From contig OZ316775.1 in NCBI GenBank assembly GCA_973851085.1, positions 8,494,001 to 8,558,000 on the forward strand: a stretch of DNA of 64,000 nucleotides. The letters run 5' to 3'. This stretch comes from Ptychomitrium polyphyllum (Eukaryota). The stretch's first letter is position 1. Every line of letters starts with the position of its first letter. The notes below the pieces were generated by a model that was not told where the DNA came from, did not search any database, and saw nothing but the letters and a program-made list of their open reading frames with translations. This document shows positions 1 to 47,282 of the stretch, in pieces. Position numbers and translations under genes: made by a program.

Positions 1-1020
1 ATGCCCTCAAGTAAAAACTACAATATACATACTAACAACATCCCCGAACTCCCGAGTCACCCCACGCCGTTTCCCCCATTGACTGCCACGACTTCCATGC
101 CAGGCTAGGAAGATAGATCGGACCATCACCATAGACAGAAACGATGTGCTCCACAGCAGCGGCAGCAGCGTCTTACCTAAGAAAAGGAGTGATATCGGAA
201 GAGCTAGTGAAGGGGGACGCTGTAACACGATAAGCAGTGGCGACGAAGGCAGCACAAGCCACCAAAGCAAAGCGTATACTGCAAACTGCAAATGCAAACA
301 GGAAAGAACGAAAAGAAGGCACACCACGCTCTCACTGCGTTAGGGTTTCCAGGAATACACACAAGGCAGTCTCCCTTCAGGAATATATCCCCGAAAACTG
401 TCACTATAAGGACCAGCTATCTACAGAAGGAGAACACTTTAATGATATAATCCTGTAAGCCGCGTAGATAATGCAGAGTCTAAGATATAAATGGAAATCC
501 ACAATCTTCGCTGTTTCCGTCAGCAACTAGCGGTTCACATTCCATCCTAAAAATTTACAGAGGCGTACATAAAGTGGAAATCGTTCACAAGGACCGTCAC
601 TGTATATGACCACATCATCTAGGGAATTTTCTGATTTTATGACAACAGCATGTTAGCAGTTGGTAAAAGCGAAGGTTTCGAATATGCATTCCGTTCATAG
701 CCTCGACATCATCAACAGTTTATGTAAACTTCTTGCCATAGGAAGTGTTGGATTGGTAGATATAGTTGGTTTTTGTGTATGCATTTCTTATAAGCCCCGG
801 CTCGGAATGGCAAGAGACGTCGGGCGTTCCTGTGATTTGTGCCAGACGATTCCACTCGTGCCCGTTCTGAGTCGTTCCCAAGGTTGGCGCCTTCGATTTC
901 TTCCATGGCGATCCAAGTGCTAACGGGACATCGGTCCATCCCGGTTGGTAATTGGCCGTTGCCTAGGGTGTGTGGCAGCCGCACCGCAGCCGCCACCAGC
1001 TTTGTTTAGGGTTTTCGTTT
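1..1020 (-). promoter_or_regulatory. Probable 5' end (promoter/5'UTR/first exons) of a minus-strand gene running off the left edge
   Basis: CpG-containing island against AT-rich background; telo-box TTAGGGTTT (AAACCCTAA on minus) at 340-348 and 1006-1014; candidate minus-strand acceptor near 452 and donor near 177. No recognisable protein. Confidence 0.35.
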
Positions 1021-9410: not shown

Positions 9411-9899
9411 CTGCATAAGAAAATACAAATACAATTGGCTTGACTTTGTTATGCTTCTTGTGAATAAACAATTCTTAATCCTAAAGAAAGTTTTCACTTC
9501 AAGCTTCATTGCTTTCAGTTTGCCAAAAGGAAACGAAAGAACATGCACACTGAGGACTATTGTCACTGCACACATGACAAGCAAAGGATCTTCATCTACC
9601 CCTGCCGCATCCATCCCTAGCAAAGATGAAGATTCCGAACTTCCGTATACTAGTGGTCAAATTCGAATCTGGAACCCACACCGTCAAAATGCAAATGCAA
9701 GAAAGGGACTCATGACGACGAAGCCACACTGCATGCCAGCGGAAAGCAAAGGGCAGAAGTGGCACCCACCAACACCGCCACATGCCACTCAACTGAAGGC
9801 TGTCACACTGCCAGGTCAGCGAATAACCACAAATTCGGGGCAGCCATGGCTTAGTATTGAACTGCTGCCCGGACGACCGACCACGCACTGCCAGACTTC

Positions 9900-10062
9900 C
9901 CTTCTCCGCCCTTTCCCGAGTCAAGGTGTCCTCTTCCCTTCACAAGCTCTAAGTTTCCTCGTTTTGGCACAAGTTTCTGCAAAGTTTGCTCCGTTCCTCG
10001 CCATAGCCAACTCCTGTGAGAGCGTGACCTGCTACCCAACTCTGCGGTTTATATTTTCTCAG
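9900..10062 (+). promoter_or_regulatory. Probable non-coding first exon upstream of reticulon copy 1
   Basis: Pyrimidine-rich leader ending ttttctcag|GTAAGG at 10062/10063; residual similarity to 39530-39669 upstream of copy 2. Confidence 0.5.
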
Positions 10063-10687
10063 GTAAGGCACAGTCTCTGGCCTTCTGAAGGCGATCTTTA
10101 CTGCTCAACGTCTCGTCGATCTCTCTACCCTTGCGTGAAATCGCTTTGAATGTGAGCTTTACTCGAGAGTTCGGGAATCTGGATATTGAACGTTGAGGCT
10201 TTCCTGTTCTTGGGACATCTTTCTTCTGCTAATAGTTTCCGGTGTATGAAAGGTTTAGGGTAAGTAGCGAGCTTATCCGTTTAGGGTCCGGAATGCCTCG
10301 TACAGGAGTGAGAGGGTTGATGGTGCTTAAGAGTCGCAGGTCGTCAAATAATATCGTGAGACGGTTTAAAGCTTACGTACTGGTGCGTCATTGCTCCTTG
10401 CCGCCCGAAACTGCAGGCCGGACAGTTCACTACTGTCTAAATATTTTTCCGTCATTACTATTTCCTTCTCCGCGTCTCTTCCTCTACCACTACGGACTCA
10501 ATCGTGGAGGACAGTAATATCATGAGGGTAAGCAATCTATTGGGTTCACGCCCGAAGAACCACTTCCGTTGGGTAGTCACTGTCTAAAAACAAATCGACT
10601 GCTTCTTTTTCATGGTTTTGGCTTATTCAATCGTAGGCAAACCAGTGTTAAGATCCTTTGCTGCGTTCCGTTCACTCCAGTTCATGA

Positions 10688-13600
10688 AACGCCGAATTGC
10701 AGTCCACAGAACGACCTTTCGCTATACAAGGCTTCAGTGCTATCCGATAGCGAGGTCAAGCCATGGTGGCAGAGCACATGTACCGAGACTGGGTTTCTGC
10801 TGGCCCCTGTTTCGAGAGCTGGAGGCCTGTGCACGATGGCCAGGGTTTGGTACGTCTAGAGCGATTTTGAGCACACGACCCGTCGATCTTGGGGAGTCGG
10901 CTCTGAGCAGCGGGGGTGGATGGTGTGAGACAGTTTTGGAGAGCGTCGTGTCGGCGGGTAGTGCAGGACGTGGTCAACTAGCCGGCTGAGGTGGACGATT
11001 GGCAATGTTTGCCCTCTCGCAGCCGTGGTGTGTCGGACGCATTCCGAGGCCAGAGGGCTCGTTGCGCATCGTGGGCCAGCGAGATGTGTTGAAATCTGGC
11101 GTCGGTGCATCCGGTTTGGGAGGTGGATGAAGCAGGAGGGCCTCATCGTAGGTAGTGCGGAGAGATCGGAGCCAGAGCCCTGTGCTGGGTGAAGAGCGTA
11201 GGGGTTCGAATCTCGGAGTCTGTCCGGTTTCAGCGCCCGTGCGTGCTGATCGCATCGCCGCAGACCGGCACGTTGCCGAGAGTTGTGTGAGGCATCCGGG
11301 CGCTGTGGTGAGTGTGCCAGCGCTGCGTGAGATGGATGGTGTATCCCGCACACGAAGTGAGCCGCATCTCCTCGTGCGTGTGTCGGGGAGGTTTGGACTG
11401 CGGGATGTCGAGATGCGTGGAGGGTTGAGGGCGATGTGTAGCCGGTGTTAACCGGAGCCATCGTCCGGCGAGCAGTGGGAGTTTGTGCGACGGTGGCTAT
11501 GTCGGGTTTGCGCTTGTGTGGTGGACGAGATTCGGTGCTGGGCTGATTCGTGAGCTGGTTGTTTCCTCCTGTGTCCGTTGGTTGTGAAATCTGGCGCCTG
11601 TGTGGAGGGGCACGGCCGCGGGAAACTGAGTGGGGGGCGTTTTGGGGTGTGCAGAGCGAATTGACTGGGCCGGAGTTGACCTTTGAAGGCGAGCACCATG
11701 TCGGAGCAGAGTGATGTGACGCAGAACGTCCCGGACCCCGTGATGGAGAACGTGAGCAGGATGCCCGCTTCTCAGACGGGTCCGATTTCGCAGTACGGAC
11801 CCGGCAACCGGTTCTTGACCAAGGACAGGACAGTGCACCAGATTCTAGGCGGAGGTCGAGGTAAGGCCCACGCATCTCTGGAGGAGCTGACAGTGCAGGC
11901 GCGGAGTGCGGAATCTGCCGGGTTCAGGCAGGGTCCGGTGTCCGGGTGGTCGGCGAACTGATCCGTTGGTGTTGGGTGTGGATGCAGCTGCCGATTCGGC
12001 TCTCTGGAGGGACAAGTATCTGTCGGCTGGGACTCTGGGCGGGTCGACGCTGGTGTGGTTTCTGTTGGAGAAGTCCGGGTACACGTTCATGACGCTGCTG
12101 TGCAACATTCTGATGTTCGCGGTGGTGATTCTGTTCGTGTGGTCGAACGTGGCCGCCCTGCTGCACAGGTTTGTGTCCGAGACCTGAATGTGACGGGTTC
12201 GTGGGAGATGGGCAATGAGATGGATGGTGGGAACGGGTGACGCCGCGTAAGGGACTCGGGTCTGTGCGGGTTCGTGACGCCGTAGGAGTCGGGTTTGGTT
12301 GTGAACGGAGACGTGTCTGCCAGCGGTGGCGAGGAGTTGGTGGGGACTGATGGGGTTACGGTGGGATTGTGGGTGTCAGAGCTGGCCCACCAGTACCGGA
12401 GCTGTCGCTGTCGGAGGATTTCGTTCTGAGCACAGCAAGCATGGTGCGCAACGACGTGAACAGGGCCCTGGCGATCGCGCGGGACGTCGCTCTGGGCAAG
12501 GATTTCAAGCTGTTTTTGCTGGTGAGCTGCGGTCATGCGAGCTGGGTAGGGGTCGACGGCAGGACGGTCGGGATGATTGTTGTAGGAGCGGAGGTCGAGG
12601 TTGTGTCGGAGCCCGTGGGCCGTTGCTGTGGGCGGTCGGGGAGTTGTGAGGAGCTGAACGGGGATGTGTGGCATGGGGCGCAGGTGATCGCGTTCCTGTA
12701 CGTTGTGTCGACGGTGACGGCGTGGTTCAACTTCCTGACGTGCGTGTGGATCGGTAAGCGGGCTGTGCCTTGGAGGAAGGACATGATGTGGTTGTGGGAT
12801 GGGCGGAGTGAGCCGACGGTGGCAGTGGGCACGGTTGATCGTGCGAGTCGCTGACATGATGGGCGTGTGGCAGGTATCGTGTTGCTGCACATCGTTCCGT
12901 TCATCTACGACAAGTACGAGGACGTGATCGACCACCACGCGAGGAGGGCGGCAGACGTAGCCAGCACCCACTACAAGAACGTGGACGCTGCGGTGTTGAG
13001 CAAGATCCCGAGGGCCCCGGCCAAGAAGAAGCTGTAGGTGCGCGAAGGTGGTGTCGGGCGATTGGGCGGGGGCCGCAGCGGGCGGGACGCAGCGCGAGAG
13101 GGGCGAGGGATATGTATATACGTACATACGTGGTGCACAGTAGGATTGGGGCGTATACCTTTGTGTTTTTGGATGTATGTAGCTCTGGAGTCGGCACTGT
13201 GCAGTATCGTAGGAGTAAGACGGATGGTCTGTAACGTGTACAGAATCCAGGTCTGTGGTTACGGAGGTTCCTTCATAAGTGGTGTCCGCGACGGGCATTT
13301 TTTAAAATCTAATTGGATCTTTCCCTTGATGTCGTGAGAGCGAGGGCGTGAGTGGGTGTCCGATGCGGGTGTCGTGGGTGCGGGCTTGCGGCGGTGCGTA
13401 GGAAGTGAGAACCGAGGCGCGGATCCTGAGGCCGTGGATGACGGGATCGCATCGCGCAGCGTACCGTCGCTGTGATGCGAGACGGTGAGTGTGAAGCAAG
13501 AGGTAGGTGTGGGTGGAAGATCCCGTCATCAACAGCCGAGGGTTCGGATGCTGTCGCTGTCGTTCCGGTGCGGCGGCATGTGCGGAAGCAACGGAACGCC

Positions 13601-14060
13601 GCAGCTCGTAGATGTGGCCGGACAAGCCCGGTCGGGGTGGAGAGAACGCAGAGCCGGTCTGGGTCCGTGGACGTGAGAGGGCACGTGGGAGAAACCGAGC
13701 GAGCGTGTGTGAGAGTGGGAAAGGGACTCGTCCGTCGAGGCAGTGCGCACCGGAGGCTGTGGAGCGAGCTGGTGGGCTTGGGAATGCTCGCTTGCCACCG
13801 GAATGTGGTTTTCACTGAACCTTGCACCCGGAAGCATTGGCACGGGAGTGGCGGTTCTCGACCGCAGTGGGTTTGCGTGGGAATGTTTTATGCGGTTTAT
13901 GCTGGACAGTATGGGGATCTATCGAGCTGAGTCTGAACGAGATGGTTGACGACGTGCACGGCGCCGTTGCGAAGTAGATGTGTATTGCGAAATGTGAATG
14001 CGTTGGAGTCCTTTTTGTGTAAAGCTAGCGTGACATCGTGGAGGATGTTTAGGCTTTTTT
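10688..14060 (+). repeat. Direct repeat copy 1 (3.37 kb, near-identical to 40523-43895)
   Basis: ORF tracks match at a constant offset of 29835; the only difference noticed is T13888 vs C43723. Imperfect match continues to ~10647. Confidence 0.95.
11698..13037 (+). CDS. RTNLB: Reticulon-like protein (RTNLB family), 239 aa, 5 coding exons: 11698-11860, 11988-12168, 12380-12521, 12684-12753, 12874-13037
   Basis: All introns GT..AG and phases consistent (720 nt). Protein has VHQILGGGRAADSALWRDKYLSAGTLGG...LFVWSN...DVALGKDFKLFL...WFNFLT...VPFIYDKYEDVID and ends AKKKL*, a KKXX ER-retrieval signal. 5'UTR acceptor at 11654. Confidence 0.95.
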
Positions 14061-16249
14061 CAGTCGTCGAGGTAGCGCGATCGGGTCCTCTGAGTGAGGA
14101 TTAATCCTCGCGGGCTTTATTTGCGTGTGGGGAAGTGTTTGGTTTTTCTATTTCGTTAGTGGTTGTTGGCAGTTTGAAACGGTGGAATGATTCAGCATTA
14201 TACTCTGGGCGTGGTTTTGGTTTTCTGTGTCGTCGTGATTGTATGTAGAAGATTCCTAAGGTTGCGTGCAGGTGGAGGTTATCCGGTTTTTGAAGAGTGT
14301 CATTAGGGGTTTGTAGGCGCCGTTTGTCGCTTTTTGAGACGTGGGATTGTTTGAGTGACGTCACTCTTGTCGTTCGAATTTTTGAATGTGACTGTCCTGA
14401 CGGTCTTTGACGTTGGGGTTATACTGGCCTGCAGCATGGGTGCTTTGGTGTTTGTATTACTTGTCTTTTGTTGAAGAAGTTACCTGCCACTAGTCGCGGC
14501 GTTCGTGTCAGTAGGGTAGTAGATTATGATTTTATTGCGGTTAGTAATTATTATTGGCTGTCTTTTGGTTAGTGTTGATCTGAAATTTTGGTTATTGGTT
14601 TAGGAAAAGCTTTTTGATTTTACGATGAGGTTCTTTTTGGTAGGTTAATTTATCAGTAGCGTAAATTCCTCCAATTGCTCGACAGATAAATAGTTAAATC
14701 CTTTTAGTAGAGATTAGTATTGCAGTTTTTCACTTTAATTATGTCCATTCTCAATATTGGTTGGCATTTCAATCTTTAAATGTGTAAATACAAATTTTCA
14801 ATATAATATTATTATCGAAATGAATGGAATAAGAATATAAATTAAGAGTTAGATTATAAAATATATTGATTGTTTGTTTTTTGTCATGTTATTTATATTT
14901 GGTTTATAGAATTGTTACTGGTGGATTGTGTAGGAGATGGAAGTAAGAGTTAAATGGCAGAGTTGTTATTACATATATGTATTTTTATTCTTGGATAAAT
15001 TGTATTTCCAATGTATGTCTTTTAATGTGGTTTAATATATTTTAATTGTGCAAATTGTTAGAATTTGTATTTATACATTTATGCATTCTTATCTATGGAT
15101 TATTATAAATTTATAAAATTTAGAGGTAGTTGTTGTAAAATTCTGTTTTTTACATGCCTTTTTTGTTCAATTTTATTTTAAAATTTCTTTTGATGTATTG
15201 AAATGATGTTGCTATTCTTGACAGTCATTCATATTACCACTTAATACTTCGTACAACAAAAGATTGGAATATCTTATTTTTTTATAATCACGTGTAGATA
15301 TATTAGATTTAGGAATTCAACTTAAGATGGAATTCTAATAAATGGCCTTGTTCATAAAATTTGGTGGAATATTAATTGATTAATTTACAAATGAAGAATT
15401 ATAATTGGTTCTATTATGTTTATCCAAGTAATAAACATCAATTAAATAATGTAACAAAGGATTTGAATGCTAACATGTTTTTTTAATATATATATATTAT
15501 GAGTTTAACGTAAAGTAAGGGTGATAGTAAAGGATATTTAGGAGGAAAGAAGAACTTCTATATTAAACTATAATAAAATTCATTAAGGTCACAACTAGTT
15601 TTTGGATCATTAACTAAAAGGGACAAAAATCTAGAACAATTGAGTTTCGTTTGTTATGTGTAATGAATGCCGAAAACACACATTGTAAAGAAAGTTGAAG
15701 TTTTTATTGGAATTAAAGTGTTAGTAAGCGTTTTTGGCTAGGATGTAATGAATTTGGAAGATTATCAAACAAAATTCTTCAAAGTATTTTCTTAGTTCAC
15801 AAAGTTATTAGAATTTTGGATATGCCAATTAATTGCTGAATAAAAGAATGCTTCACAATTAACTTTTAAATATTGAATTAGCTATTTCAAGACAATGCTA
15901 ATAGAATAGCTTTCATGTAAGGAGGGTCACTTCTTCAATTGTGGAAGAAGTATAAAAGATTCTAACAGTATTGCACTTACCAAAGATAATTCTTATGGCA
16001 TAATTGTAGATTGTAGAAAACAAATATTTAGATTTAACACTATTATTGTTCTAAAAAGATGTATAAATAGATGTCATAAATAATGTTGCAAGCGCTAAGA
16101 GTGGACTTTTGGAACTTGTTTCAAACATGGTTGTATCAAACAAGAAGTTTGAATTCAATCAATAATTGCTTTAATACAAGGTAGAAGATAAAGCCTCATC
16201 AAAGACATTTCTTTATCATTCCTTATTTAAAGTGCTAGAGCATGAGAAG

Positions 16250-19989: not shown

Positions 19990-22900
19990 TGTTAGGGACA
20001 CAAGAAACAAGAAGCAAAAATGAAGTGATTTCCAAGAATTAGCTTCCATAGAGCTAATGATTAACAAGAACTTGATACAAAGACTAGAACAAGGTAGGAT
20101 TCAAGATGATTCACAACTTGTGTTGGCAAGACTAAGGAATACCTTGTCTTGCCTCCTATTTATACTATGACGTTTGAATCTCCTAGGATACTTCTAAAGA
20201 AGCTTCCTACAAGGCTTAAGAATGTTCTGGAAGTCTGGGGAACCTTCTAAAGAGTCTTCCAAGGAGTTGGAACCTTCCTAAGAGTCTTCCAAGGAATTGG
20301 AACCTTCCTTGGAAGTTTCCTAAAGTAGCGGAACCTTCCTTGGAAGTTTCCTGAAGAGGTAGAACCTTCCTAGGAAGTTTCCTAAGGTGATGGAAGCTTC
20401 CTAGGAAGTAATCTAAGATGATAGAACCTTCCTAGGAAGTTTCTTAAGGTGGAGGAACTTTCCTGGGAAGCTTCCTAAAAACATAAAAAAGGCTATGGAG
20501 ACATCTAAAAGTATTCTAAGAAACTATTCTAGTATATTAGAAGGTTCTCAAATGTTCTAAGGATTATGTTGCATGATCTATGTCCGTGACATCACCTCCC
20601 CTTTTAGCGACGAGTCCCATGAGGAGCTCTTTTCTTGGCTTGCTTGTCACATTTCTACAAATTCCAAAATTTGTCAAAGGAGTGAAGCAACATATTCTGC
20701 TTGTTGTTCTCTGTTCACTGGCTCAACTGGTCCTTGCAAGAAGCGTCGATGGCCACCAGCCAAGACTTCTGTTGTTGAAATGTTCCATTCCAAGATCTGA
20801 TCTTGATTAAGTCCTTCAAAACATCCTCCAAACAAGATTTCGGGTCCTCCAGGGGTGACTCTTCCAATTTCCAATAAGATGACTAGAGCGCGAGCATCTG
20901 AATCAAGACTGGAATGTGAAGGGCGACTAGTCAATACTTCTGCACGAGGTCGTACTCGACGTTGGGATGTCCCTCTCATATCTTGACTTAGATCCTCCGT
21001 TACCGAGGGCTAAGAAAGTTGAGTTGGCTCAACAGATGCTGTTGTTGATGAAGGCATGGCCGACTGCTCTTTACGCATATCCATGATAACACAAAGATTT
21101 GACATACTGGCTAGGATCTAGAAATGATCTATCTTGGAAATAATGCTGCATACAATTGGAGGTCTGGATATCTCTCCTCCCTTCTTATACTTGTCTACAA
21201 AGGAAAAACTTCTCTGTGAAGCTAACGGCTGCTGATGACACATCATCACTGATCTGGTTTCTGAGGATATTTTTGATGAAATTTGCTTACCTTCTCGGAT
21301 GCGTTTGTTACATTCGTTGAAGGTTCCCATGTTCGGTCATTGATGCCATATCCTTGCCAATGTATAAGATACTCCACACGTCCGTTCTTGATGCGTGAAT
21401 CTAAGATATCTTCCACTTCATATTCAATTTTATTATTGATTTCCAGCGGAGGAGGCGGAGGGACAATTCTCTCTGGTAAACATGATTTGTAATAGGTTTC
21501 CAACAACAATACGTGGAACACTGGATGAATTTGCATGCTTGGTGGTAGCTTTAGGCGATAACTAACCGGATTTATTTGTTTGTTGATTTCAAACGGTCCA
21601 AGCCTTTGATAGTCCAACTTCTTTGATGGTCTTTTTGTCTGTATATTTTGTTGTAGGAGCCATACGCTATCTCCAACCTTGAACTTTGGATGGTCCTTCC
21701 GATGGCGATCTGCATAAGTTTTGTAACGATCTTGAGCTTGTTGTAATTGGAAGGTAATTTCTTGATGGATTTTAGCAAGTTGAATTGCAAAATCCTCTGC
21801 TGCAGGACTTCCAACATGCTTCACTTGAAATGGATCTGTTCCAGGATGATGGCCATAGTTTGCAAATAATGGACTTTGAGTTGTTCAAGAAGGCACCGTA
21901 TTGTTATAAGCAAATTCTGCCAAAGGCAAGAGATCCATCCAGTTGTCTTGCTGGTAGTTTATGCTACAACGAAGGTATTGCTCCAAAATTTGATTCACAC
22001 GTTCGGTTTGGCCATCAATTTGTGGATGGTGTGCTGAAGAAAGATTGATCTTTACACGCAATAGCTGGAATAGAGCCCTCCAAAAGTTAGAAATGAATTG
22101 CGGCCCCCGATTGGATACAATATCATCTGGTAGTCCATAAATGCAGTAGTTGTGATTTAAAAACAACTTGGCAGTTTCTTCTTCCGTTACCGTCTTATTG
22201 CATGGAATGAAATGTGCCATTTTTGTAAATCGATCCACCACTACCAAAATAGAATCCTTAGAATCGGAATTTGGAAGGTCCGTGATAAAATCCATTGATA
22301 AAGACAACCATGGGCCCCTTGGCACTGGAAGCGGATGGAAGAGACCATGAGATTGGTGCCTTGGTACCTTGGCTCTTGCACAAGTGTCGCATGATCGAAT
22401 AAAGTCCTTTACGTACTTCCACATTTGTGGCCACCAATAGTCTCTAGCAATCAATTTCATTGTTTTATTGAATCCAAAATGTCCTGCTGCTAGAAAATCA
22501 TGACGTGCTTGAAGGATCTTCAACCGCAAAGGGTCTGGAGGTAGGTACAAAAGTCCTTTATAATAAAGTAGGCCCTCTTGGAATTCAAAGTCTTCATTGC
22601 TATTTGAAGGATTTCCATTGTCTTGGAGGCGCTTCTTTATATTTGAAACAAAGACGTCATTCTTGAAAGCCTTCCGAATTTCGTCAAAATGGGATGTTGT
22701 CGTAATAATGGCTGCTTTCAATTGAAGATTCTCAGGCTTCAATAAAATAGTCCTTTGTTGATTCAAAACATCATCTCCAGGTTGAGGAGCTAAATAAGAT
22801 CTTCAAGATAAGGCATCTGGCTTATCTTGCAAGCTACCAGATCGATAGGTAATGACAAATTCAAATCTGGAAAGCGACATACTCCACCTTGCTTGACGGC

Positions 22901-23623
22901 GATTCAAAACGCGCGCACTCATGAAATACTCCAAGTTTTTGTGATCTGTGTATATCGTGATGGTATGTTGAGCTCCTTCCAATAAGTGTCGCCATTCTTC
23001 AAACGCATCTACAATTGCAAGTAGTTCTTTATCATGTATATCATAGTTGATCTCTGCCGCTCAGAACTTCCTTGAACGAAAGGCAAGAGGGTGAAGTCTC
23101 CCGTCTTCATCATATTGTGAGAGTACTGAGCCAAGCGCAAAATCTGAGGCATTTGCTTCCAAATAGAAAGGCTTTGATGGATTTGGATGAATAAGAATTG
23201 GAGCCGACGTGAATGACTTCTTAAGACTTTGAAATGCTTTTTCCGCCTCTTCATCCCAAATGAATTTTTGCTTCCCCATAAGACGTGTTAATGGTGCCGC
23301 AATATTGGAATAATTCTTGATGAATATTCTATAGAAGTTTGCAAATCCCAAGAAGCATTGAACATCTCGAATTGATCTTGGCGTACTCCACTCCGTGACA
23401 GTGCTTATTTTTTTCTTATCCATATGGATTCCTCCTTTGGAAATGATGTAGCCTAAAAATTCAACCGATGATTCATGGAAAAGGCACTTCTCCAATTTGG
23501 CATATAATCCTCGCTGGCGTAGTTTTTCTAGGACCATTTGCACATGACATTCGTGGTCTTGTTCATCCTTTGAATATATCAGAATGTTAACTAAGTAGTT
23601 GACTACAAAATCATTAAGATGTT
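19990..23623 (-). mobile_element. Chromovirus element B: 3' LTR (19990-20591), extra ORF, chromodomain, integrase, RNase H, partial RT; left arm of the inverted repeat
   Basis: ORFs 21246-21824, 21885-22766 and 23061-23543 translate identically to their counterparts within 27703-30000; mirror coordinates sum to 51246. Confidence 0.95.
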
Positions 23624-26515: not shown

Positions 26516-29500
26516 GGACCATGCAATTGGACACCACAAGGAAACCACCATCAAATCAAGGTCTCTTACTACCTTCAAATCCTACCTCTTGTTTTACATT
26601 TCCTATCAAAATAAAGTTGTTAGATGATGAAATAATTAGCGAGGCTCTCTTAGACACTGGTGCAACAGCATGTTTTATGGACAAGGATTTTGCAACCAAG
26701 CATCACATGGTGCTTGTGAAGAAAAAATATCCCGCACCTGTTGAAGTTATTGATGGACGATCTCTTGCGTCTGGCAACATTATTGAAGAAACTCAACCAT
26801 TGGAGGTTATTTTAGGAGACCAGGCATCTAAGATTGTCTTCAACATCATTCAATGCCAAATGAATCCTATTGTTTTGGACCTTCCTTGGTTTGAATTACA
26901 TAATCCAGACATTGACTGGCGCTCACGGAGTGTGGTCTCAAGGAAAAGACGCCAAGGTACGAGAAATCTTGGACCATCATTTATTGGAGCTAAGGCATTT
27001 ATGAGAGCAGCAAAAAATGAAGCAATCTGTGCCGTTTATGCCACGCCAATGTCTAGCTCTACAATAGAGAGTAATCAAAATATACCTCGCCAATATCAAG
27101 ATTATAAAGATGTTTTTGAAAAAAAGAATGCGAACATGTTACCAAAGCACCGGCCTTACGATTGTACCATTGAGTTGCAAAAATGAGCCCAACCACCTTT
27201 TGGACCTATTTATAACTTATCATAAACTGAGTTGGCTGCCTTGAGAGATTATATTTAGGAAAACCTTGGAAAGGGTTTCATTCAACATTCTAAATCACCT
27301 ACTGGAGCACCCATTCTGTTTGTAAAGAAAAAAGATGGATCATCACGTATGTGCGTGGATTATTGAGGTCTCAACAAAGTAACAAAAAAGAATCACTATC
27401 CATTACCATTAATCTCAGGACTCCTACAACAACTTGGCCAAACAAGAATATTCACCAAAATTGATCTTAGAGGAGCCTACAATCTTGTACGCATCTAAGA
27501 AAGAATTGAATAGAAAACAGCTTTTCGATATAGGTATGGTCATTTTGAATACAATGTCATGCCTTTTGGCCTTACTAATGCTCTCGCAGTCTTTCAACAT
27601 ATGATGAATGATATCTTCCATGAACATCTTAATGATTTTGTAGTCAACTACTTAGTTAACATTCTGATATATTCAAAGGATGAACAAGACCACGAATGTC
27701 ATGTGCAAATGGTCCTAGAAAAACTACGCCAGCGAGGATTATATGCCAAATTGGAGAAGTGCCTTTTCCATGAATCATCGGTTGAATTTTTAGGCTACAT
27801 CATTTCCAAAGGAGGAATCCATATGGATAAGAAAAAAATAAGCACTGTCACGGAGTGGAGTACGCCAAGATCAATTCGAGATGTTCAATGCTTCTTGGGA
27901 TTTGCAAACTTCTATAGAATATTCATCAAGAATTATTCCAATATTGCGGCACCATTAACACGTCTTATGGGGAAGCAAAAATTCATTTGGGATGAAGAGG
28001 CGGAAAAAGCATTTCAAAGTCTTAAGAAGTCATTCACGTCGGCTCCAATTCTTATTCATCCAAATCCATCAAAGCCTTTCTATTTGGAAGCAAATGCCTC
28101 AGATTTTGCGCTTGGCTCAGTACTCTCACAATATGATGAAGACGGGAGACTTCACCCTCTTGCCTTTCGTTCAAGGAAGTTCTGAGCGGCAGAGATCAAC
28201 TATGATATACATGATAAAGAACTACTTGCAATTGTAGATGCGTTTGAAGAATGGCGACACTTATTGGAAGGAGCTCAACATACCATCACGATATACACAG
28301 ATCACAAAAACTTGGAGTATTTCATGAGTGCGCGCGTTTTGAATCGCCGTCAAGCAAGGTGGAGTATGTCGCTTTCCAGATTTGAATTTGTCATTACCTA
28401 TCGATCTGGTAGCTTGCAAGATAAGCCAGATGCCTTATCTTGAAGATCTTATTTAGCTCCTCAACCTGGAGATGATGTTTTGAATCAACAAAGGACTATT
28501 TTATTGAAGCCTGAGAATCTTCAATTGAAAGCAGCCATTATTACGACAACATCCCATTTTGACGAAATTCGGAAGGCTTTCAAGAATGACGTCTTTGTTT
28601 CAAATATAAAGAAGCGCCTCCAAGACAATGGAAATCCTTCAAATAGCAATGAAGACTTTGAATTCCAAGAGGGCCTACTTTATTATAAAGGACTTTTGTA
28701 CCTACCTCCAGACCCTTTGCGGTTGAAGATCCTTCAAGCACGTCATGATTTTCTAGCAGCAGGACATTTTGGATTCAATAAAACAATGAAATTGATTGCT
28801 AGAGACTATTGGTGGCCACAAATGTGGAAGTACGTAAAGGACTTTATTCGATCATGCGACACTTGTGCAAGAGCCAAGGTACCAAGGCACCAATCTCATG
28901 GTCTCTTCCATCCGCTTCCAGTGCCAAGGGGCCCATGGTTGTCTTTATCAATGGATTTTATCACGGACCTTCCAAATTCCGATTCTAAGGATTCTATTTT
29001 GGTAGTGGTGGATCGATTTACAAAAATGGCACATTTCATTCCATGCAATAAGACGGTAACGGAAGAAGAAACTGCCAAGTTGTTTTTAAATCACAACTAC
29101 TGCATTTATGGACTACCAGATGATATTGTATCCAATCGGGGGCCGCAATTCATTTCTAACTTTTGGAGGGCTCTATTCCAGCTATTGCGTGTAAAGATCA
29201 ATCTTTCTTCAGCACACCATCCACAAATTGATGGCCAAACCGAACGTGTGAATCAAATTTTGGAGCAATACCTTCGTTGTAGCATAAACTACCAGCAAGA
29301 CAACTGGATGGATCTCTTGCCTTTGGCAGAATTTGCTTATAACAATACGGTGCCTTCTTGAACAACTCAAAGTCCATTATTTGCAAACTATGGCCATCAT
29401 CCTGGAACAGATCCATTTCAAGTGAAGCATGTTGGAAGTCCTGCAGCAGAGGATTTTGCAATTCAACTTGCTAAAATCCATCAAGAAATTACCTTCCAAT

Positions 29501-30000
29501 TACAACAAGCTCAAGATCGTTACAAAACTTATGCAGATCGCCATCGGAAGGACCATCCAAAGTTCAAGGTTGGAGATAGCGTATGGCTCCTACAACAAAA
29601 TATACAGACAAAAAGACCATCAAAGAAGTTGGACTATCAAAGGCTTGGACCGTTTGAAATCAACAAACAAATAAATCCGGTTAGTTATCGCCTAAAGCTA
29701 CCACCAAGCATGCAAATTCATCCAGTGTTCCACGTATTGTTGTTGGAAACCTATTACAAATCATGTTTACCAGAGAGAATTGTCCCTCCGCCTCCTCCGC
29801 TGGAAATCAATAATAAAATTGAATATGAAGTGGAAGATATCTTAGATTCACGCATCAAGAACGGACGTGTGGAGTATCTTATACATTGGCAAGGATATGG
29901 CATCAATGACCGAACATGGGAACCTTCAACGAATGTAACAAACGCATCCGAGAAGGTAAGCAAATTTCATCAAAAATATCCTCAGAAACCAGATCAGTGA
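26488..30000 (+). pseudogene. pol: pol of element C: protease, RT, RNase H, integrase, chromodomain (inactivated)
   Basis: LLDTGA protease; MPFGLTNA RT with YLDD mutated to YLVN; integrase H..H..CDTC zinc finger and LGPF; chromodomain [22 protein letters not shown]; about 9 in-frame stops counted by eye. Confidence 0.93.
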
Positions 30001-31256
30001 TGATGTGTCATCAGCAGCCGTTAGCTTCACAGAGAAGTTTTTCCTTTGTAGACAAGTATAAGAAGGGAGGAGAGATATCCAGACCTCCAATTGTATGCAG
30101 CATTATTTCCAAGATAGATCATTTCTAGATCCTAGCCAGTATGTCAAATCTTTGTGTTATCATGGATATGCGTAAAGAGCAGTCGGCCATGCCTTCATCA
30201 ACAACAGCATCTGTTGAGCCAACTCAACTTTCTTAGCCCTCGGTAACGGAGGATCTAAGTCAAGATATGAGAGGGACATCCCAACGTCGAGTACGACCTC
30301 GTGCAGAAGTATTGACTAGTCGCCCTTCACATTCCAGTCTTGATTCAGATGCTCGCGCTCTAGTCATCTTATTGGAAATTGGAAGAGTCACCCCTGGAGG
30401 ACCCGAAATCTTGTTTGGAGGATGTTTTGAAGGACTTAATCAAGATCAGATCTTGGAATGGAACATTTCAACAACAGAAGTCTTGGCTGGTGGCCATCGA
30501 CGCTTCTTGCAAGGACCAGTTGAGCCAGTGAACAGAGAACAACAAGCAGAATATGTTGCTTCACTCCTTTGACAAATTTTGGAATTTGTAGAAATGTGAC
30601 AAGCAAGCCAAGAAAAGAGCTCCTCATGGGACTCGTCGCTAAAAGGGGAGGTGATGTCACGGACATAGATCATGCAACATAATCCTTAGAACATTTGAGA
30701 ACCTTCTAATATACTAGAATAGTTTCTTAGAATACTTTTAGATGTCTCCATAGCCTTTTTTATGTTTTTAGGAAGCTTCCCAGGAAAGTTCCTCCACCTT
30801 AAGAAACTTCCTAGGAAGGTTCTATCATCTTAGATTACTTCCTAGGAAGCTTCCATCACCTTAGGAAACTTCCTAGGAAGGTTCTACCTCTTCAGGAAAC
30901 TTCCAAGGAAGGTTCCGCTACTTTAGGAAACTTCCAAGGAAGGTTCCAATTCCTTGGAAGACTCTTAGGAAGGTTCCAACTCCTTGGAAGACTCTTTAGA
31001 AGGTTCCCCAGACTTCCAGAACATTCTTAAGCCTTGTAGGAAGCTTCTTTAGAAGTATCCTAGGAGATTCAAACGTCATAGTATAAATAGGAGGCAAGAC
31101 AAGGTATTCCTTAGGCTTGCCAACACAAGTTGTGGATCATCTTGAATCCTACCTTGTTCTAGTCTTTGTATCAACTTCTTGTTAATCATTAGCTCTATGG
31201 AAGCTAATTCTTGGGAAACACTTCGTTTCTGCTTCTTGTTTCTTGTGTCACTAACA

Positions 31257-39669: not shown

Positions 39670-40522
39670 GTAACTTACCCTCAGCCTCAGCCGCTCCTCC
39701 TACTCCCGCTTCTAGCACCACTTTGCTGCGGCCATGCTTTTCTCCGTCTCGTAGCCCGTGTATGCCCCTTCTGTAACAATGGGAGTTTCAGGATCATGTT
39801 AGCGCAGGTTGTCCCTTCACTGCTGCATTTCTGTGTACTGGGTTGAGGTTTTCTCTTTTTGCCTTTTCTTTTCGCTTTTGCGCTCTTTTGAAGGTCATGG
39901 TAGGCAGCGAGCTTGCTCATAGTCTTGGAGGATTAGGAGGTGCTTTGGAGTGTGATATTAGCGACTGGTGTTAGATTTGGGCTTAAGAGGAGTGTATGAA
40001 GGGTAAGGTTCCGTTTATTCTTGCGTCTTGCTGGCCGGGAGTGGACGACTCGCGGTTTACGACTGTTAGATGGTAATTTTGGTGCTTTGGTTGTTGTATT
40101 TTTATCTCTTTCTTCCTCTGTTTATTTTCGTGTGGCTTTTAAAGTGATTGAAGACGGATATCTTTGATCTGAGGGCGACGTATCTTTGGCATCCATGCGA
40201 TTTGTGCTAGTCCTAAAGAATACACGACCTTCTTCATTTCTTGATAGCAGTAGCCTTAATTGTAGGAAACTCACTTTTAGAATTTTTTTGTCATATTAAA
40301 GTCATTTCGTCGTGGTCTTCTAACCGGCAAACTCTTCAAACCTGGGAGTCGCAGTTCAGAGAAACTTGTCTTCAAGGCAGCACTTTAGACGTGTTTCAAC
40401 CAAAAATGATGTTCCTGCGGTTGACAGTACATATAACGATGGAAAGAAACTACATTATATGACCTAGTCATTTTGTCCGTCGTCAAGATCCTTTGCTGCG
40501 TTCCATTCTCTCCAGTACATGG

Positions 40523-43500
40523 AACGCCGAATTGCAGTCCACAGAACGACCTTTCGCTATACAAGGCTTCAGTGCTATCCGATAGCGAGGTCAAGCCATG
40601 GTGGCAGAGCACATGTACCGAGACTGGGTTTCTGCTGGCCCCTGTTTCGAGAGCTGGAGGCCTGTGCACGATGGCCAGGGTTTGGTACGTCTAGAGCGAT
40701 TTTGAGCACACGACCCGTCGATCTTGGGGAGTCGGCTCTGAGCAGCGGGGGTGGATGGTGTGAGACAGTTTTGGAGAGCGTCGTGTCGGCGGGTAGTGCA
40801 GGACGTGGTCAACTAGCCGGCTGAGGTGGACGATTGGCAATGTTTGCCCTCTCGCAGCCGTGGTGTGTCGGACGCATTCCGAGGCCAGAGGGCTCGTTGC
40901 GCATCGTGGGCCAGCGAGATGTGTTGAAATCTGGCGTCGGTGCATCCGGTTTGGGAGGTGGATGAAGCAGGAGGGCCTCATCGTAGGTAGTGCGGAGAGA
41001 TCGGAGCCAGAGCCCTGTGCTGGGTGAAGAGCGTAGGGGTTCGAATCTCGGAGTCTGTCCGGTTTCAGCGCCCGTGCGTGCTGATCGCATCGCCGCAGAC
41101 CGGCACGTTGCCGAGAGTTGTGTGAGGCATCCGGGCGCTGTGGTGAGTGTGCCAGCGCTGCGTGAGATGGATGGTGTATCCCGCACACGAAGTGAGCCGC
41201 ATCTCCTCGTGCGTGTGTCGGGGAGGTTTGGACTGCGGGATGTCGAGATGCGTGGAGGGTTGAGGGCGATGTGTAGCCGGTGTTAACCGGAGCCATCGTC
41301 CGGCGAGCAGTGGGAGTTTGTGCGACGGTGGCTATGTCGGGTTTGCGCTTGTGTGGTGGACGAGATTCGGTGCTGGGCTGATTCGTGAGCTGGTTGTTTC
41401 CTCCTGTGTCCGTTGGTTGTGAAATCTGGCGCCTGTGTGGAGGGGCACGGCCGCGGGAAACTGAGTGGGGGGCGTTTTGGGGTGTGCAGAGCGAATTGAC
41501 TGGGCCGGAGTTGACCTTTGAAGGCGAGCACCATGTCGGAGCAGAGTGATGTGACGCAGAACGTCCCGGACCCCGTGATGGAGAACGTGAGCAGGATGCC
41601 CGCTTCTCAGACGGGTCCGATTTCGCAGTACGGACCCGGCAACCGGTTCTTGACCAAGGACAGGACAGTGCACCAGATTCTAGGCGGAGGTCGAGGTAAG
41701 GCCCACGCATCTCTGGAGGAGCTGACAGTGCAGGCGCGGAGTGCGGAATCTGCCGGGTTCAGGCAGGGTCCGGTGTCCGGGTGGTCGGCGAACTGATCCG
41801 TTGGTGTTGGGTGTGGATGCAGCTGCCGATTCGGCTCTCTGGAGGGACAAGTATCTGTCGGCTGGGACTCTGGGCGGGTCGACGCTGGTGTGGTTTCTGT
41901 TGGAGAAGTCCGGGTACACGTTCATGACGCTGCTGTGCAACATTCTGATGTTCGCGGTGGTGATTCTGTTCGTGTGGTCGAACGTGGCCGCCCTGCTGCA
42001 CAGGTTTGTGTCCGAGACCTGAATGTGACGGGTTCGTGGGAGATGGGCAATGAGATGGATGGTGGGAACGGGTGACGCCGCGTAAGGGACTCGGGTCTGT
42101 GCGGGTTCGTGACGCCGTAGGAGTCGGGTTTGGTTGTGAACGGAGACGTGTCTGCCAGCGGTGGCGAGGAGTTGGTGGGGACTGATGGGGTTACGGTGGG
42201 ATTGTGGGTGTCAGAGCTGGCCCACCAGTACCGGAGCTGTCGCTGTCGGAGGATTTCGTTCTGAGCACAGCAAGCATGGTGCGCAACGACGTGAACAGGG
42301 CCCTGGCGATCGCGCGGGACGTCGCTCTGGGCAAGGATTTCAAGCTGTTTTTGCTGGTGAGCTGCGGTCATGCGAGCTGGGTAGGGGTCGACGGCAGGAC
42401 GGTCGGGATGATTGTTGTAGGAGCGGAGGTCGAGGTTGTGTCGGAGCCCGTGGGCCGTTGCTGTGGGCGGTCGGGGAGTTGTGAGGAGCTGAACGGGGAT
42501 GTGTGGCATGGGGCGCAGGTGATCGCGTTCCTGTACGTTGTGTCGACGGTGACGGCGTGGTTCAACTTCCTGACGTGCGTGTGGATCGGTAAGCGGGCTG
42601 TGCCTTGGAGGAAGGACATGATGTGGTTGTGGGATGGGCGGAGTGAGCCGACGGTGGCAGTGGGCACGGTTGATCGTGCGAGTCGCTGACATGATGGGCG
42701 TGTGGCAGGTATCGTGTTGCTGCACATCGTTCCGTTCATCTACGACAAGTACGAGGACGTGATCGACCACCACGCGAGGAGGGCGGCAGACGTAGCCAGC
42801 ACCCACTACAAGAACGTGGACGCTGCGGTGTTGAGCAAGATCCCGAGGGCCCCGGCCAAGAAGAAGCTGTAGGTGCGCGAAGGTGGTGTCGGGCGATTGG
42901 GCGGGGGCCGCAGCGGGCGGGACGCAGCGCGAGAGGGGCGAGGGATATGTATATACGTACATACGTGGTGCACAGTAGGATTGGGGCGTATACCTTTGTG
43001 TTTTTGGATGTATGTAGCTCTGGAGTCGGCACTGTGCAGTATCGTAGGAGTAAGACGGATGGTCTGTAACGTGTACAGAATCCAGGTCTGTGGTTACGGA
43101 GGTTCCTTCATAAGTGGTGTCCGCGACGGGCATTTTTTAAAATCTAATTGGATCTTTCCCTTGATGTCGTGAGAGCGAGGGCGTGAGTGGGTGTCCGATG
43201 CGGGTGTCGTGGGTGCGGGCTTGCGGCGGTGCGTAGGAAGTGAGAACCGAGGCGCGGATCCTGAGGCCGTGGATGACGGGATCGCATCGCGCAGCGTACC
43301 GTCGCTGTGATGCGAGACGGTGAGTGTGAAGCAAGAGGTAGGTGTGGGTGGAAGATCCCGTCATCAACAGCCGAGGGTTCGGATGCTGTCGCTGTCGTTC
43401 CGGTGCGGCGGCATGTGCGGAAGCAACGGAACGCCGCAGCTCGTAGATGTGGCCGGACAAGCCCGGTCGGGGTGGAGAGAACGCAGAGCCGGTCTGGGTC

Positions 43501-43895
43501 CGTGGACGTGAGAGGGCACGTGGGAGAAACCGAGCGAGCGTGTGTGAGAGTGGGAAAGGGACTCGTCCGTCGAGGCAGTGCGCACCGGAGGCTGTGGAGC
43601 GAGCTGGTGGGCTTGGGAATGCTCGCTTGCCACCGGAATGTGGTTTTCACTGAACCTTGCACCCGGAAGCATTGGCACGGGAGTGGCGGTTCTCGACCGC
43701 AGTGGGTTTGCGTGGGAATGTTCTATGCGGTTTATGCTGGACAGTATGGGGATCTATCGAGCTGAGTCTGAACGAGATGGTTGACGACGTGCACGGCGCC
43801 GTTGCGAAGTAGATGTGTATTGCGAAATGTGAATGCGTTGGAGTCCTTTTTGTGTAAAGCTAGCGTGACATCGTGGAGGATGTTTAGGCTTTTTT
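40523..43895 (+). repeat. Direct repeat copy 2 (near-identical to 10688-14060)
   Basis: Constant offset of 29835; identity ends after AGGCTTTTTT. Confidence 0.95.
41533..42872 (+). CDS. RTNLB: Reticulon-like protein (RTNLB family), second copy, 239 aa; exons 41533-41695, 41823-42003, 42215-42356, 42519-42588, 42709-42872
   Basis: Same splice sites and protein as 11698-13037. Confidence 0.95.
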
Positions 43896-44548
43896 TAGAT
43901 GATGAAGCGATGAGGCGGGATTCGATGTGATATGTGAGTTTTGGTTTTCTCTATTGTTGTTCGCGTCGTTTGTCGGCTGATGTTCAGGCGATATATTAGT
44001 CGAGTGGGTGTGGACTGGTGGACTGCATGTTTATTCGGAGGCTGTTTACGTTATTTTTAGGTTGGCGCTTTTTAATTTGAAGTAAACGAAATCAAGTTTT
44101 TTTTTTGACGTTGTAAACGTGGATCTTCGAGGTTTGGAGTTTAGGATTACTTTGTACATGCGGAATTGGATTTGTCGAATTTCATCGAATGTTCCAGTTA
44201 GTGTTTATTAAGTGTGGATGCCTTGAGGAGTGATGAATGTTTAGCTCCTTACATGTGGGGTACTAGTATTTTTTTTTGGTCACTTTTACAGGTTCAGTGT
44301 AAGGGTCGATTATGATGATGGTATAGTATGTTTTCATACTTTTTAATTTTGATTATGATGAATAAGGTATGATTTATTGTAATACTTTTCAGTAAAGTAT
44401 ATCAATGGACGTTTTGAAGAATTTTGGACGAATTTGTTTATGCATGTGGTAGCCTAGTTCACATTATGATAAGTTTGTTATATGAAATTTGTGATATGAA
44501 ATTAATTGTGGTAATTGTAAAGAAATCATGATGTCACAGAGATAAAAA

Positions 44549-44648
44549 TATCAAATTGTACAGTGAAATCTTAGATTTTATGAATGATGATTGCAATATA
44601 TCAAATTGTACAGTGGAATCTTAGATTTTATGAATGATGATTGCAATA
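44549..44648. repeat. Tandem duplication, 2 x 50 bp
   Basis: TATCAAATTGTACAGTG(A/G)AATCTTAGATTTTATGAATGATGATTGCAATA twice, one mismatch. Confidence 0.9.
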
Positions 44649-47282
44649 GTGAGTGTGATGATTTACTTTGTGTGAAATTATTATAGAGGATGGAAATGTA
44701 GTTTATTGTTGAAGTCATCGTTTATTATATCTTATTGTGAAATTATTATTGATGATGGAAATGTAATTTATTGATTGCAGTATAAGTTAGCTTTTGTTAG
44801 TTAAGCGTTTTCATTTAGTGCTCGATGAAATTTAAAAAATAAATATCTATCAAATAAATTTAGAAAAATTTGAATGGTTAGAAACTATTTTGAAAGTATA
44901 TTTATCTTTGAAACTCATATGAATCCAAGAAATGATCATATGGTTAGAAAACAAGTTGTGGGATATAAAAATAACTATTTAAAGTCTAAAGTTATTCAAG
45001 TGTACGCCAAAGTAGTATTGTACCATTTATCCACTTTGCTTCATTTAATGAATAGGTACATATTCATCAATTTTTTTTCTACATATTTTGTAAATGAAAT
45101 ATTGGTCAAATATATTATGAACATTTTTTTTCTTTGTAATTGGAAGAATTATACTATAAAACTTAATTTAATTTATATCTTATTGAATTAATTTGAAGAA
45201 TGAAAAATGATTGATCTAGTTTGGATTTTATTCTTCATTCAATTGAAGAATAGTTGATTTGCTAGCATTGAGTCTTTTACTTAATGATACTTCTCTTTGT
45301 CAAAACATGGTTAAAGTTTTTAATTAATTTGTATGCTCTAAATTCTTTACTTACAATACTGATCAATACAATTTTTATGTCCAATATATTTGAATTTATA
45401 AATCTTATACATTGTCCATATTATCCTCATTAAAAATCTTTCAAATATTATGAACTCCTTTACCTTATTGGATATAGAAGGTAGAAAGTATTAATATATA
45501 ATCATTCAAAAAATTTGGACAAATTTGTAAGAATGATAAAAGAATTTGAATAGAACCTTTTGAAACAACATGAAATGGCAACTTGGTTACTTAAACTCCT
45601 TTCAATTAATGTAATGCTCTTCATCAAATGTTTGAAAAACAAATGATGATAGTACGTTCTTTTTTGTAATTGGCAGTGGTAATCATGTTAGTGTTGTTTC
45701 AACATACAACATGCAAACACTCACCACTTGCCTATATTTGGGATTCCACATTTTCAATCTTTGGAATGATTTGTTAGTTGTGTCACCTCATGGAGAAAAT
45801 ATTAAAATCAGGCTTCATCAACTACGCTTCATCACCTGGTAAGGGAAGCAGTGACCATACAAATGTTCCTTTGCCGGTCCTGTTAAGCCTCGCAGTATGA
45901 TGCAAGCAAACCTTAAAGTGATTGAATGCTGGCATGGCTCATAGGCATGGTTGACACGGAGCAAGGGATCTAAGTGGAATAACTGAATTCCTAGGTAAGA
46001 CAGAAGCGTCAATGACATTGCTCAAAATTATATTTGGTGATGCTGGTCAATAACGTTTTCAGAGGGGGAGTGGGAGGGGAATTGGGAGTGTAGGCCTAGG
46101 CCCATGAAGGACACATTTCTCTGGAAAATTGAATAACATACATAGAACAGCAGTACCACACCCATTAAGTTAATACAAAAACAATAATATATCTGTTTTA
46201 TGATATTAGTTTATTATATTACTTATCAAAAAATTTGATATTCATCTTTAGAAATAATATTATTTCAATATCATTCACTGTACGTACATTACCACAGTTA
46301 CCCGTGAGACTTCCACAATTTCAGTGGCAATGACAATTTCCATTGGTAATATTTTAGTAAGAGATGGAGCTTTACTTTTTATTGGACATCTCAATTAAAT
46401 ACACAGCATGTGCATTTCCATATAGCTCAGGTGTTGGACCTTAAATTTGGAATGTAAAGATGTCGGGTACCCAACAATCTTTCGATTGCTACCTCGCAAC
46501 AACAAAAAAATTCGTAAATAAGATGGAGATCATAACTCATATCTCGATGGCATCAATCAGATATCCAGACCTGCATCATTAGAATTCATGGTGGTGTGGG
46601 TATCTTCAGTCAGTGGTGTTTCAGCTTCGAGATAAATTGCTAGAGGCATCTACAATTCGTAGGTGATAGAGGGGTTCTTTCATCAAAATTTTGCTTTGAA
46701 TAAAGCGCAGAGCACTTTGAAGTGTTTTGGACGCGAAGAGAAACCCTGGATTTGAAGAAGTAAAGACTCGAAAGAAACCGTTTCCTTGACTTGAATCACT
46801 CGGCACACTCAGACGAACAATCAGAACATTCAAGATTGAAGGCGATTTGTAACACCGGCAGGGACCGGTACACTTAGTGTCTTTACTATACAGATGGATT
46901 GTTTAAAATACACAGGGTTTCCTCATATGCCCTGAAAAGAAACTGACTGAATACATCTCGGCATACTCTGCAAGTCCAAGAGCCTCCAAACAAATGGAGA
47001 TTGCTCGAGTGGAGAATGACTTCCAAAGAAGCAAGCTTCGTCAGGATTTCATTACGGGTGCTTGATTGCAGCAGCCTGCACATTTCCCGATAAGGAGTAG
47101 TTCTCCTCAAACATAGCAAAAAAGGTGGATATCCTAGGCCCCAAGGAAACATTTACAATCTAACCTTACTCCCCTAGGGCAGGTATTTTCCAGTACTATT
47201 CACAGTAAGATATAGTAGGCATCACTGATGTCACTATTCGTGATGCACGGGCTGAGCTACGGTCCATGCCTCTGCCATGTCT

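Follow-up and report, generated by a model that had tools for sequence, protein, structure and literature searches.

A G-rich GC island in a pair of homogenised moss reticulon genes, probably shaped by GC-biased gene conversion

Introduction

In this report, we examine a stretch of 64,000 nucleotides from the moss Ptychomitrium polyphyllum (contig OZ316775.1, 8,494,001-8,558,000, forward strand), hereafter the window, and particularly two copies of a reticulon gene, termed copy A and copy B, that lie 29.8 kb apart within it (offset 29,835). All coordinates are positions within this window. The two copies share a tract of 3.4 kb that is almost identical, rich in GC and especially rich in G on the sense strand. 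We consider, with a probability of roughly three in four, that this composition results from recurrent GC-biased gene conversion between duplicates that are probably ancient, and that the strand skew is mostly linked to transcription. An earlier account of the locus, made by a model from the letters of the sequence and termed here the original prediction, had proposed long-term biased conversion between the paralogues with an added strand-asymmetric component, and its claims are taken up below with the results that bear on them.

Composition of the island

Between 10860 and 13960, GC amounts to 60.9% (G 39.9%, C 21.0%), with a skew, (G-C)/(G+C), of +0.31, against 34.4% GC in the remaining window. 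The elevation is even, since all six 500-bp bins across 11001-14000 fall at 58-62%, and outside both copies the maximum among 542 1-kb windows is 53%. GC at third codon positions (GC3) is 83% (n=239), four-fold sites are 61% G and 18% C, and the four introns of the coding region reach 63% GC (G 46.5%, C 16.8%). When GC, GC3 and skew are measured in windows, a GC-rich and G-skewed island is thus indeed present, with the GC of about 60% or more, the mostly G/C third positions and the excess of G over C on the sense strand that the original prediction had reported by eye. Three of its other statements hold in part. The background is strongly AT-rich if the rest of the window is taken as a whole, but transcribed gene DNA has 44-53% GC and intergenic DNA 20-30%, and it is transcribed DNA that is the proper background for the island. 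The richness described for introns and untranslated regions (UTRs) applies to the introns, while the 3'UTR proper has just 53%. Finally, the decay over about 500 bp described at the ends is found, as a gradual fall over some 500-700 bp, 3' of both copies only, the 5' end being a step.

This step lies at about 10750, in the middle of the putative 5'UTR intron and some 100 bp inside the edge of identity, with a plateau of 44-47% GC beyond it. In copy A, the first 580 bp or so of this intron, which are outside the tract, have 47% GC and a skew of +0.03, against 62% and +0.31 inside. Across the edge it is G that rises, from 0.23 to 0.40, with no clear step in C and with T:A unchanged, so that the island is more exactly a G island. 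The claimed coincidence of the GC island with the identity tract stands, as 10860-13960 falls within 10647-14063. The effect tracks the tract in non-coding DNA, not only at this mid-intron step and in the introns, but also beyond the 3'UTR, where 13331-13800 has 66% GC.

Some other sources of this composition were rejected. The tract has an observed-to-expected CpG ratio of about 1, and so do the outer part of A's intron and the intron of the single-copy neighbour gene (0.81 in B's intron); as it is about 1 on either side of the step in A, protection from the decay of methylated C through hypomethylation is not the source of the step. Selection for G-quadruplexes was likewise set aside, with 94 GGG runs against 124±7 in shuffled sequences and two canonical motifs. 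The tract's long open reading frames on the minus strand were taken as a by-product of its stop-poor composition. It was also found that TpA occurs 20 times in the non-coding DNA of 10800-13800, where 62 are expected (34/40, 46/58 and 50/61 in unconverted introns); TpA is known to covary with GC, and its depletion may reflect this.

Two real copies under probable concerted evolution

The tracts of A and B are identical at 3410 of 3417 bases, without any gap. Of the seven differences, five are found within 41 bp of the tract start and the others at positions 13888 and 14061; six are therefore at most 45 bp from a tract edge, and a single one falls in the core of 3,373 bp. Near-perfect identity between unique flanks is typical of assembly errors, in which one locus is written twice or diverged copies are overwritten by their consensus. 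Such an artefact is highly improbable here. In an independent contig assembly of the reads of the matching sample, the depth is 35.4 in the 5' flank, 71.2 in the tract and 41.9 in the 3' flank; it is exactly doubled over 10688-14060, and the loose ends of the contig forks read as the flanks of copy B. This doubled depth, together with forks into both flanks, means that both copies are real and do not stem from an assembly duplication, and the GC content would be unaffected by such an error anyway. The same run also contains a single-depth contig of a reticulon paralogue with longer introns.

At the 5' edge, a faint match of 40271-40481 with 10622-10646, which is not significant (12 of 200 shuffles as good), suggests that copy B might carry an insertion of about 210 bp directly 5' of the tract, which could set the tract edge.

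The tract does not include the promoters or first exons, nor the initial 600-800 bp of the 5'UTR intron, and all of these have diverged almost beyond recognition. The outer parts of the two 5'UTR introns can still be aligned, if remotely (score of 66 against a shuffle maximum of 52, 0 of 200; the significance of all remote alignments was judged by their score against 200 shuffles). The order of the genes in the window, namely a probable third paralogue, A, B and a small gene, mirrors that of M758_1G204200, 204000, 203800 and 203700 in Ceratodon, where M758_1G203700 adjoins the reticulon genes M758_1G203800, 204000 and 204200. The two corresponding Ceratodon proteins differ, with 222 of 241 residues identical. 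Together with flanks that are near saturation, this gene order makes an old duplication of A and B probable.

A second view of the tract comes from X3, a sequencing run of a relative, whose contigs were compared with the window. These contigs collapse bubbles, so the X3 copies are not seen separately, and their cover at >=80% excludes B's first exon, B's outer intron and the regions past either 3' edge. The tract contigs reach a depth of 17.7-21.3, where the flank of A has 10.2, the region upstream of B 12.1 and the neighbour gene 11.1-12.7; overall, the tract has 1.4-2.1 times the single-copy depth. The five tract pieces listed differ from the window at 26/263, 42/499, 108/1649, 3/224 and 42/473 positions, which is 6.5-10% in four of them and 1.3% in the fifth, located in the 3'UTR, while the divergence between X3's own copies, estimated from shared 31-mers, is about 0-3%. 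X3 thus appears to carry two near-identical copies as well, and the paralogues would be closer to one another than to the orthologues, as expected from concerted evolution. Its double-depth contig runs about 20 bp past the 5' edge, with A-type sequence.

The apparent near-identity of the copies in X3 despite 6-10% divergence, and the probable age of the pair, point to recurrent gene conversion between the loci. The single difference among the 3,373 bases of the core would mean that, per site, conversion outpaces mutation by a factor of thousands (steady-state d ~ 2u/c).

Direction of substitution and strength of the bias

The direction of change was read at synonymous third positions after aligning the codons of the window gene and of six moss transcripts, with the moss reticulon transcript L001 as sister and either of two others, L002 or L003, as outgroup. 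The homologues compared here and below are paralogues or distant homologues whose single-copy orthology is unproven. With L002, the window branch has 22 AT>GC against 5 GC>AT changes at 98 sites (p=0.0015), and the sister branch 6 against 12 at 87 sites. L003 as outgroup gives 21:5 at 96 sites for the window branch and 4:15 at 85 for the sister. The contrast between the branches is significant in both cases (p=0.002 and 9e-5, respectively), and the 3'UTR behaves similarly, with 15:6 in the window branch and 5:16 in the sister. Within the genome, the single-depth paralogue has A/T against G/C in the tract at at least 32 of the places listed, and the reverse at 5 (p=7e-6; 48 places were listed, and one from copy B was taken out). 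Moreover, GC3 is 48-67% in all six moss transcripts, against 83% here, and homologous introns have 37-40% GC at the seven distant loci measured (L011 was omitted, its match pattern nearly repeating that of L010). An AT>GC excess is therefore found, as anticipated, and the homologues are not equally GC-rich, so that the proposal of long-term GC-biased conversion between paralogues comes through both comparisons.

How such a bias would act can be outlined as follows. Each mutation arising in one copy would form a mismatch with the other, through which it would be either spread or erased; if the resolution of mismatches favoured G/C about two times in three, GC would climb in both copies together. 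A G/C preference of (1+b)/2 would raise the equilibrium odds of GC by (1+b)/(1-b). When the non-coding DNA of the tract is pooled and compared with nine unconverted baselines, its GC odds are 1.57-2.69 times theirs, which would imply that G/C wins in 0.61-0.73 of the cases; under the model used, of a haploid with two copies and no recombination, this is an upper bound, because recombination between the loci would amplify the shift in odds. The GC gain would be superimposed on the transcription-linked excess of G over C and of T over A in moss genes.

The strand skew

The skew is not confined to converted DNA. It continues for about 1 kb past the 3' end of the tract (+0.35 to +0.50). G:C is 2.1 in the tract; the unconverted 3' flanks have values of 2.1 and 2.6, L001 and L002 have 2.2 in their UTRs, and the third paralogue's intron (170 bp) has 1.9 on its sense strand. 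The single-copy neighbour, which is on the opposite strand, has a sense skew of +0.24 in its first intron (G:C 1.6). Since the skew follows the sense strand in genes that are oppositely oriented and unconverted, it is probably linked to transcription, and most of it is likely a background of this kind. A skew set by the direction of replication is unlikely, as its sign follows the orientation of the genes.

The same pooled tract DNA and nine baselines were used to compare G:C. No difference was found with five of them (the third paralogue's intron, both 3' flanks and the UTRs of L001 and L002), and the difference with the neighbour's intron is small (p=0.013). When the tract is compared with the outer intron of A and that of B, which make three overlapping baselines, the difference is clear (odds 1.8-2.1, p<1e-4). 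Thus, of the added strand-asymmetric, possibly transcription-linked component in the original prediction, the sense-strand direction is borne out by the opposite-strand neighbour, but much of what had been counted as added is probably background. In a toy model with invented rates, G:C does not respond to a symmetric bias as long as C>G is no more frequent than G>C; if it is, G:C goes only from 1.6 to 1.8.

Alternative explanations

Conversion could be biased with respect to strand as well as to GC, if heteroduplex repair, or mutagenesis accompanying it, favoured G on the sense strand of the transcribed tract. Possible routes would be a template-strand-directed repair of G:T, or C>G changes on the exposed non-template strand, which a GC bias does not see, and the G-rich RNA could stabilise R-loops that feed more conversion. 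We regard this extension as tentative, and on balance as unlikely. The rise of G alone at the tract edge within one intron speaks for it, as do the coding-region introns, whose G:C of 2.8 exceeds the 1.6 measured in the intron of the neighbour (p=2.5e-4); in distant mosses, the skew of the homologous introns is just +0.06 to +0.16. At four-fold sites, C>G is seen at 4 of 8 and G>C at 1 of 18 (p=0.02, uncorrected). The tract also lies inside the probable transcribed span of the gene and its 3' run-on, and a formerly longer tract could have left the 3' flanks behind, which would make them dependent controls. However, five of the nine baselines do not differ from the tract in G:C, the skew of the 3'UTR (+0.39) matches that of L001 (+0.38) and L002 (+0.37), and changes in the UTR are balanced (C>G 2, G>C 3), as are polarised gains to G and to C (15:12 and 11:14). 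The four-fold G:C is not clearly different from that of L001 (p=0.056), and GGG runs are below their number in shuffles. A general form of this extension, in which the conversion of transcribed tandem duplicates would drive sense-strand G in mosses and leave G islands recognisable from one genome, possibly with R-loop feedback, is more speculative still.

A different possibility is that the gene was GC-rich beforehand, owing to its high expression, its short introns, an allelic recombination hotspot or selection, and that the identity reflects a recent single conversion or a partial re-duplication. In Physcomitrium patens, GC contents of coding sequence, introns and UTRs intercorrelate and track expression (PMC5507605); the introns are short here (120-211 bp) and longer in the paralogue, and the GC step is about 100 bp inside the edge of identity rather than exactly at it. 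Nevertheless, we find this explanation improbable. The X3 tract, although 6.5-10% diverged, also appears homogenised and has a 5' edge in almost the same place, so that a single recent event is insufficient. Furthermore, the step occurs in mid-intron at no evident functional boundary, the DNA past the 3'UTR reaches 66% GC, and GC3 is lower in all the homologues examined.

Recurrent GC-biased conversion remains the reading that we prefer, with several results that weigh against it. At the 5' edge, only G gains (with G:C odds of x1.8 and x1.65, p<0.001), which does not fit a symmetric bias. When both outgroups are required to agree, the substitution count drops to 9:2 of 55 sites (p=0.065). L001 is probably the orthologue of the third paralogue and not of A/B, so that the contrast between branches is one between gene lineages; this lineage may have been GC-rich earlier, the intron comparison having covered distant loci. 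At site 13888, the X1 contigs have T and the X2 contigs C, in contigs that collapse bubbles. As to the age of the pair, homology between the 3' flanks of A and B is not significant (17 and 32 of 200 shuffles), nor is it in a direct comparison of their first exons (55 of 200); the protein tree leaves the orthology of A/B unsettled, and independent duplications in Ceratodon and in the window lineage could also have given this gene order. In X3, the paralogue has a depth of 14.1, and on that baseline the tract ratio is just 1.3-1.5 and the divergence between the copies up to 4%. A retroelement inverted pair of 3.6 kb in the window, whose mismatches are clustered at the edges, has just 40% GC. Lastly, PMC5507605, a codon-usage study in moss, considers that allelic GC-biased conversion plays a negligible part in a selfing species, and that conversion between non-allelic copies in P. 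patens is probably not GC-biased.

Known systems and significance

GC-biased conversion between duplicates is a known process, of which this locus is an unusually clean case in a moss; it is new for a moss locus, and the G-only gain is the oddity. Rensing et al. reportedly found in 2008 that tandem genes of P. patens are GC-richer than average. A system of this kind is also reported in mammalian histone paralogues (Galtier 2003, cited in 10.1101/135152). In humans, non-allelic conversion favours G/C in 67.3% of cases, and converted tracts have 48.9% GC against 39.6% in unconverted parts of the same gene (10.1101/135152), where we find 62% against 44-47%. The two systems share the AT>GC excess and a similar bias, about 0.67 there and an estimated 0.61-0.73 here. 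Unlike the human duplicates as presented in that source, the moss case is a single tract of 3.4 kb, covering a whole gene body, that is apparently near GC equilibrium; the plant is haploid-dominant, and the gain is mostly in sense-strand G.

Closer to this locus, tandem arrays of P. patens are described as highly similar through concerted evolution (PMC3045890, citing Lang et al. 2008), and 'pseudoalleles' have been described in the same species (PMC3729371). As here, the similarity of these paralogues is attributed to gene conversion, although the passages on tandem arrays in these two papers are silent on any GC gain. According to Benovoy et al. 2005, as cited in PMC4316631, ectopic conversion also raises the GC of duplicated plant genes; these are GC-richer through conversion as here, but the sharp intronic step and the effect beyond the UTR are particular to this locus with respect to that account. 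Indels are reported to end conversion tracts, and dosage has been put forward as a motive for conversion (PMC3924837). Concerning the skew, transcription-associated asymmetry gives an excess of G over C and of T over A on the non-template strand (PMC2927911), with a skew of about 0.06-0.1 in the mammalian introns treated there and of +0.3 to +0.5 here. Our literature search found no account of moss duplicates in which conversion goes with GC or G islands, most subscription journals and the main P. patens genome papers being outside its scope.

Mammals are known to have GC-biased conversion between paralogues, and it is cited for Arabidopsis, but in moss PMC5507605 set it aside. In plants that are haploid-dominant and often selfing, allelic conversion meets few mismatches, and the bias may be expressed chiefly in duplicates. 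The locus provides a built-in control, with one intron that is half converted, and the estimate of the bias is near 2/3, like the human value. On this reading, the GC-rich tail of moss genes should be enriched in homogenised duplicates. It also calls for caution, as identical moss paralogues can be old. Should the G-only gain prove general, conversion would have a strand asymmetry for which the search, within the same limits, found no precedent.

Gene content and other observations

The gene of the tract is, by its sequence, a moss reticulon. The reticulon homology domain (Pfam PF02453) is detected above cut-off in exons 2 and 3 and below it in exon 5, and exon 2 is 97% identical to three adjoining proteins of Ceratodon purpureus and 78-81% identical to Physcomitrium patens ones. 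At the left end of the window, 193-386 (minus strand) aligns with the first exon of L001 (score 87, shuffle maximum 55, 0 of 200) and is probably part of a third reticulon paralogue. The features are collected in Table 1.

Table 1. Features of the reticulon locus and of its surroundings, in window coordinates
Feature	Position	Strand	Remarks
Homogenised tract, copy A	10647-14063	+	99.8% identical to copy B; doubled depth, graph forks at both ends
Homogenised tract, copy B	40482-43898	+	offset 29,835 from A
G-rich GC island in copy A	10750-14063	+	5' change-point ~10750, GC 0.47 to 0.62, G 0.23 to 0.40
Reticulon-like (RTNLB) coding region	11698-13037	+	239 aa; copy B same at +29835
RTNLB coding exons	11698-11860, 11988-12168, 12380-12521, 12684-12753, 12874-13037	+	GT-AG sites, open frame
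Putative non-coding first exon, copy A	9800-10063	+	C-skewed; homology to L001 first exon, score 48, 0/200 shuffles
Putative 5'UTR intron, copy A	10064-11654	+	donor/acceptor motifs, L001 exon junction
Putative 5'UTR intron, copy B	39670-41489	+	first ~810 bp outside tract, 44% GC, remotely homologous to A's
Putative 3'UTR	13038-13330	+	53% GC, skew +0.34; aligns with L001-L003
Converted DNA past the putative 3'UTR end	13331-14063	+	66% GC to 13800, then 51%
Unconverted 3' flank of A	14064-15000	+	GC 47 to 27%, G/T skew kept; B likewise 43899-44835
Third, unconverted reticulon paralogue: probable first exon and start of 5'UTR intron	1-386	-	runs off left end of window
Single-copy neighbour gene	47283-49700	-	75-aa protein, matches Ceratodon M758_1G203700
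First intron of neighbour (control)	48548-49560	-	49% GC, sense skew +0.24

The introns of the converted copies (11861-12873) measure 127, 211, 162 and 120 bp; longer ones are found in the single-depth paralogue (about 570, 295 and 195 bp) and in L007 (about 1160 and 320 bp). At 13020-13037, the converted copies end in KKKL, as does Ceratodon 1G204200, and the syntenic Ceratodon pair ends in KQKKMM and KQKKTM. This pair and the window gene have their N-terminus and a DVN motif in common. The combination of the KKKL end with the DVN pattern could be a mosaic left by older conversion among the three paralogues.

In the 3'UTR, a block at 13075-13200 around a TATATACGTA-like palindrome is kept in L001-L003 and is 1.3% diverged in X3; it is likely a regulatory element.

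Elsewhere in the window, 19990-23623 and 27623-31256 form an inverted pair of 3,634 bp, 99.78% identical, unskewed and with 40% GC, which we take from its pol-like frames to be a Ty3/Gypsy-like retroelement. All 8 mismatches are confined to the outer 142 bp, the remaining 3,492 bp being free of them, a pattern that looks like arm-to-arm conversion. Finally, a stretch of 50% GC at 61540-63000, with an open frame of 176 aa at 61541-62071, may be another gene or element.

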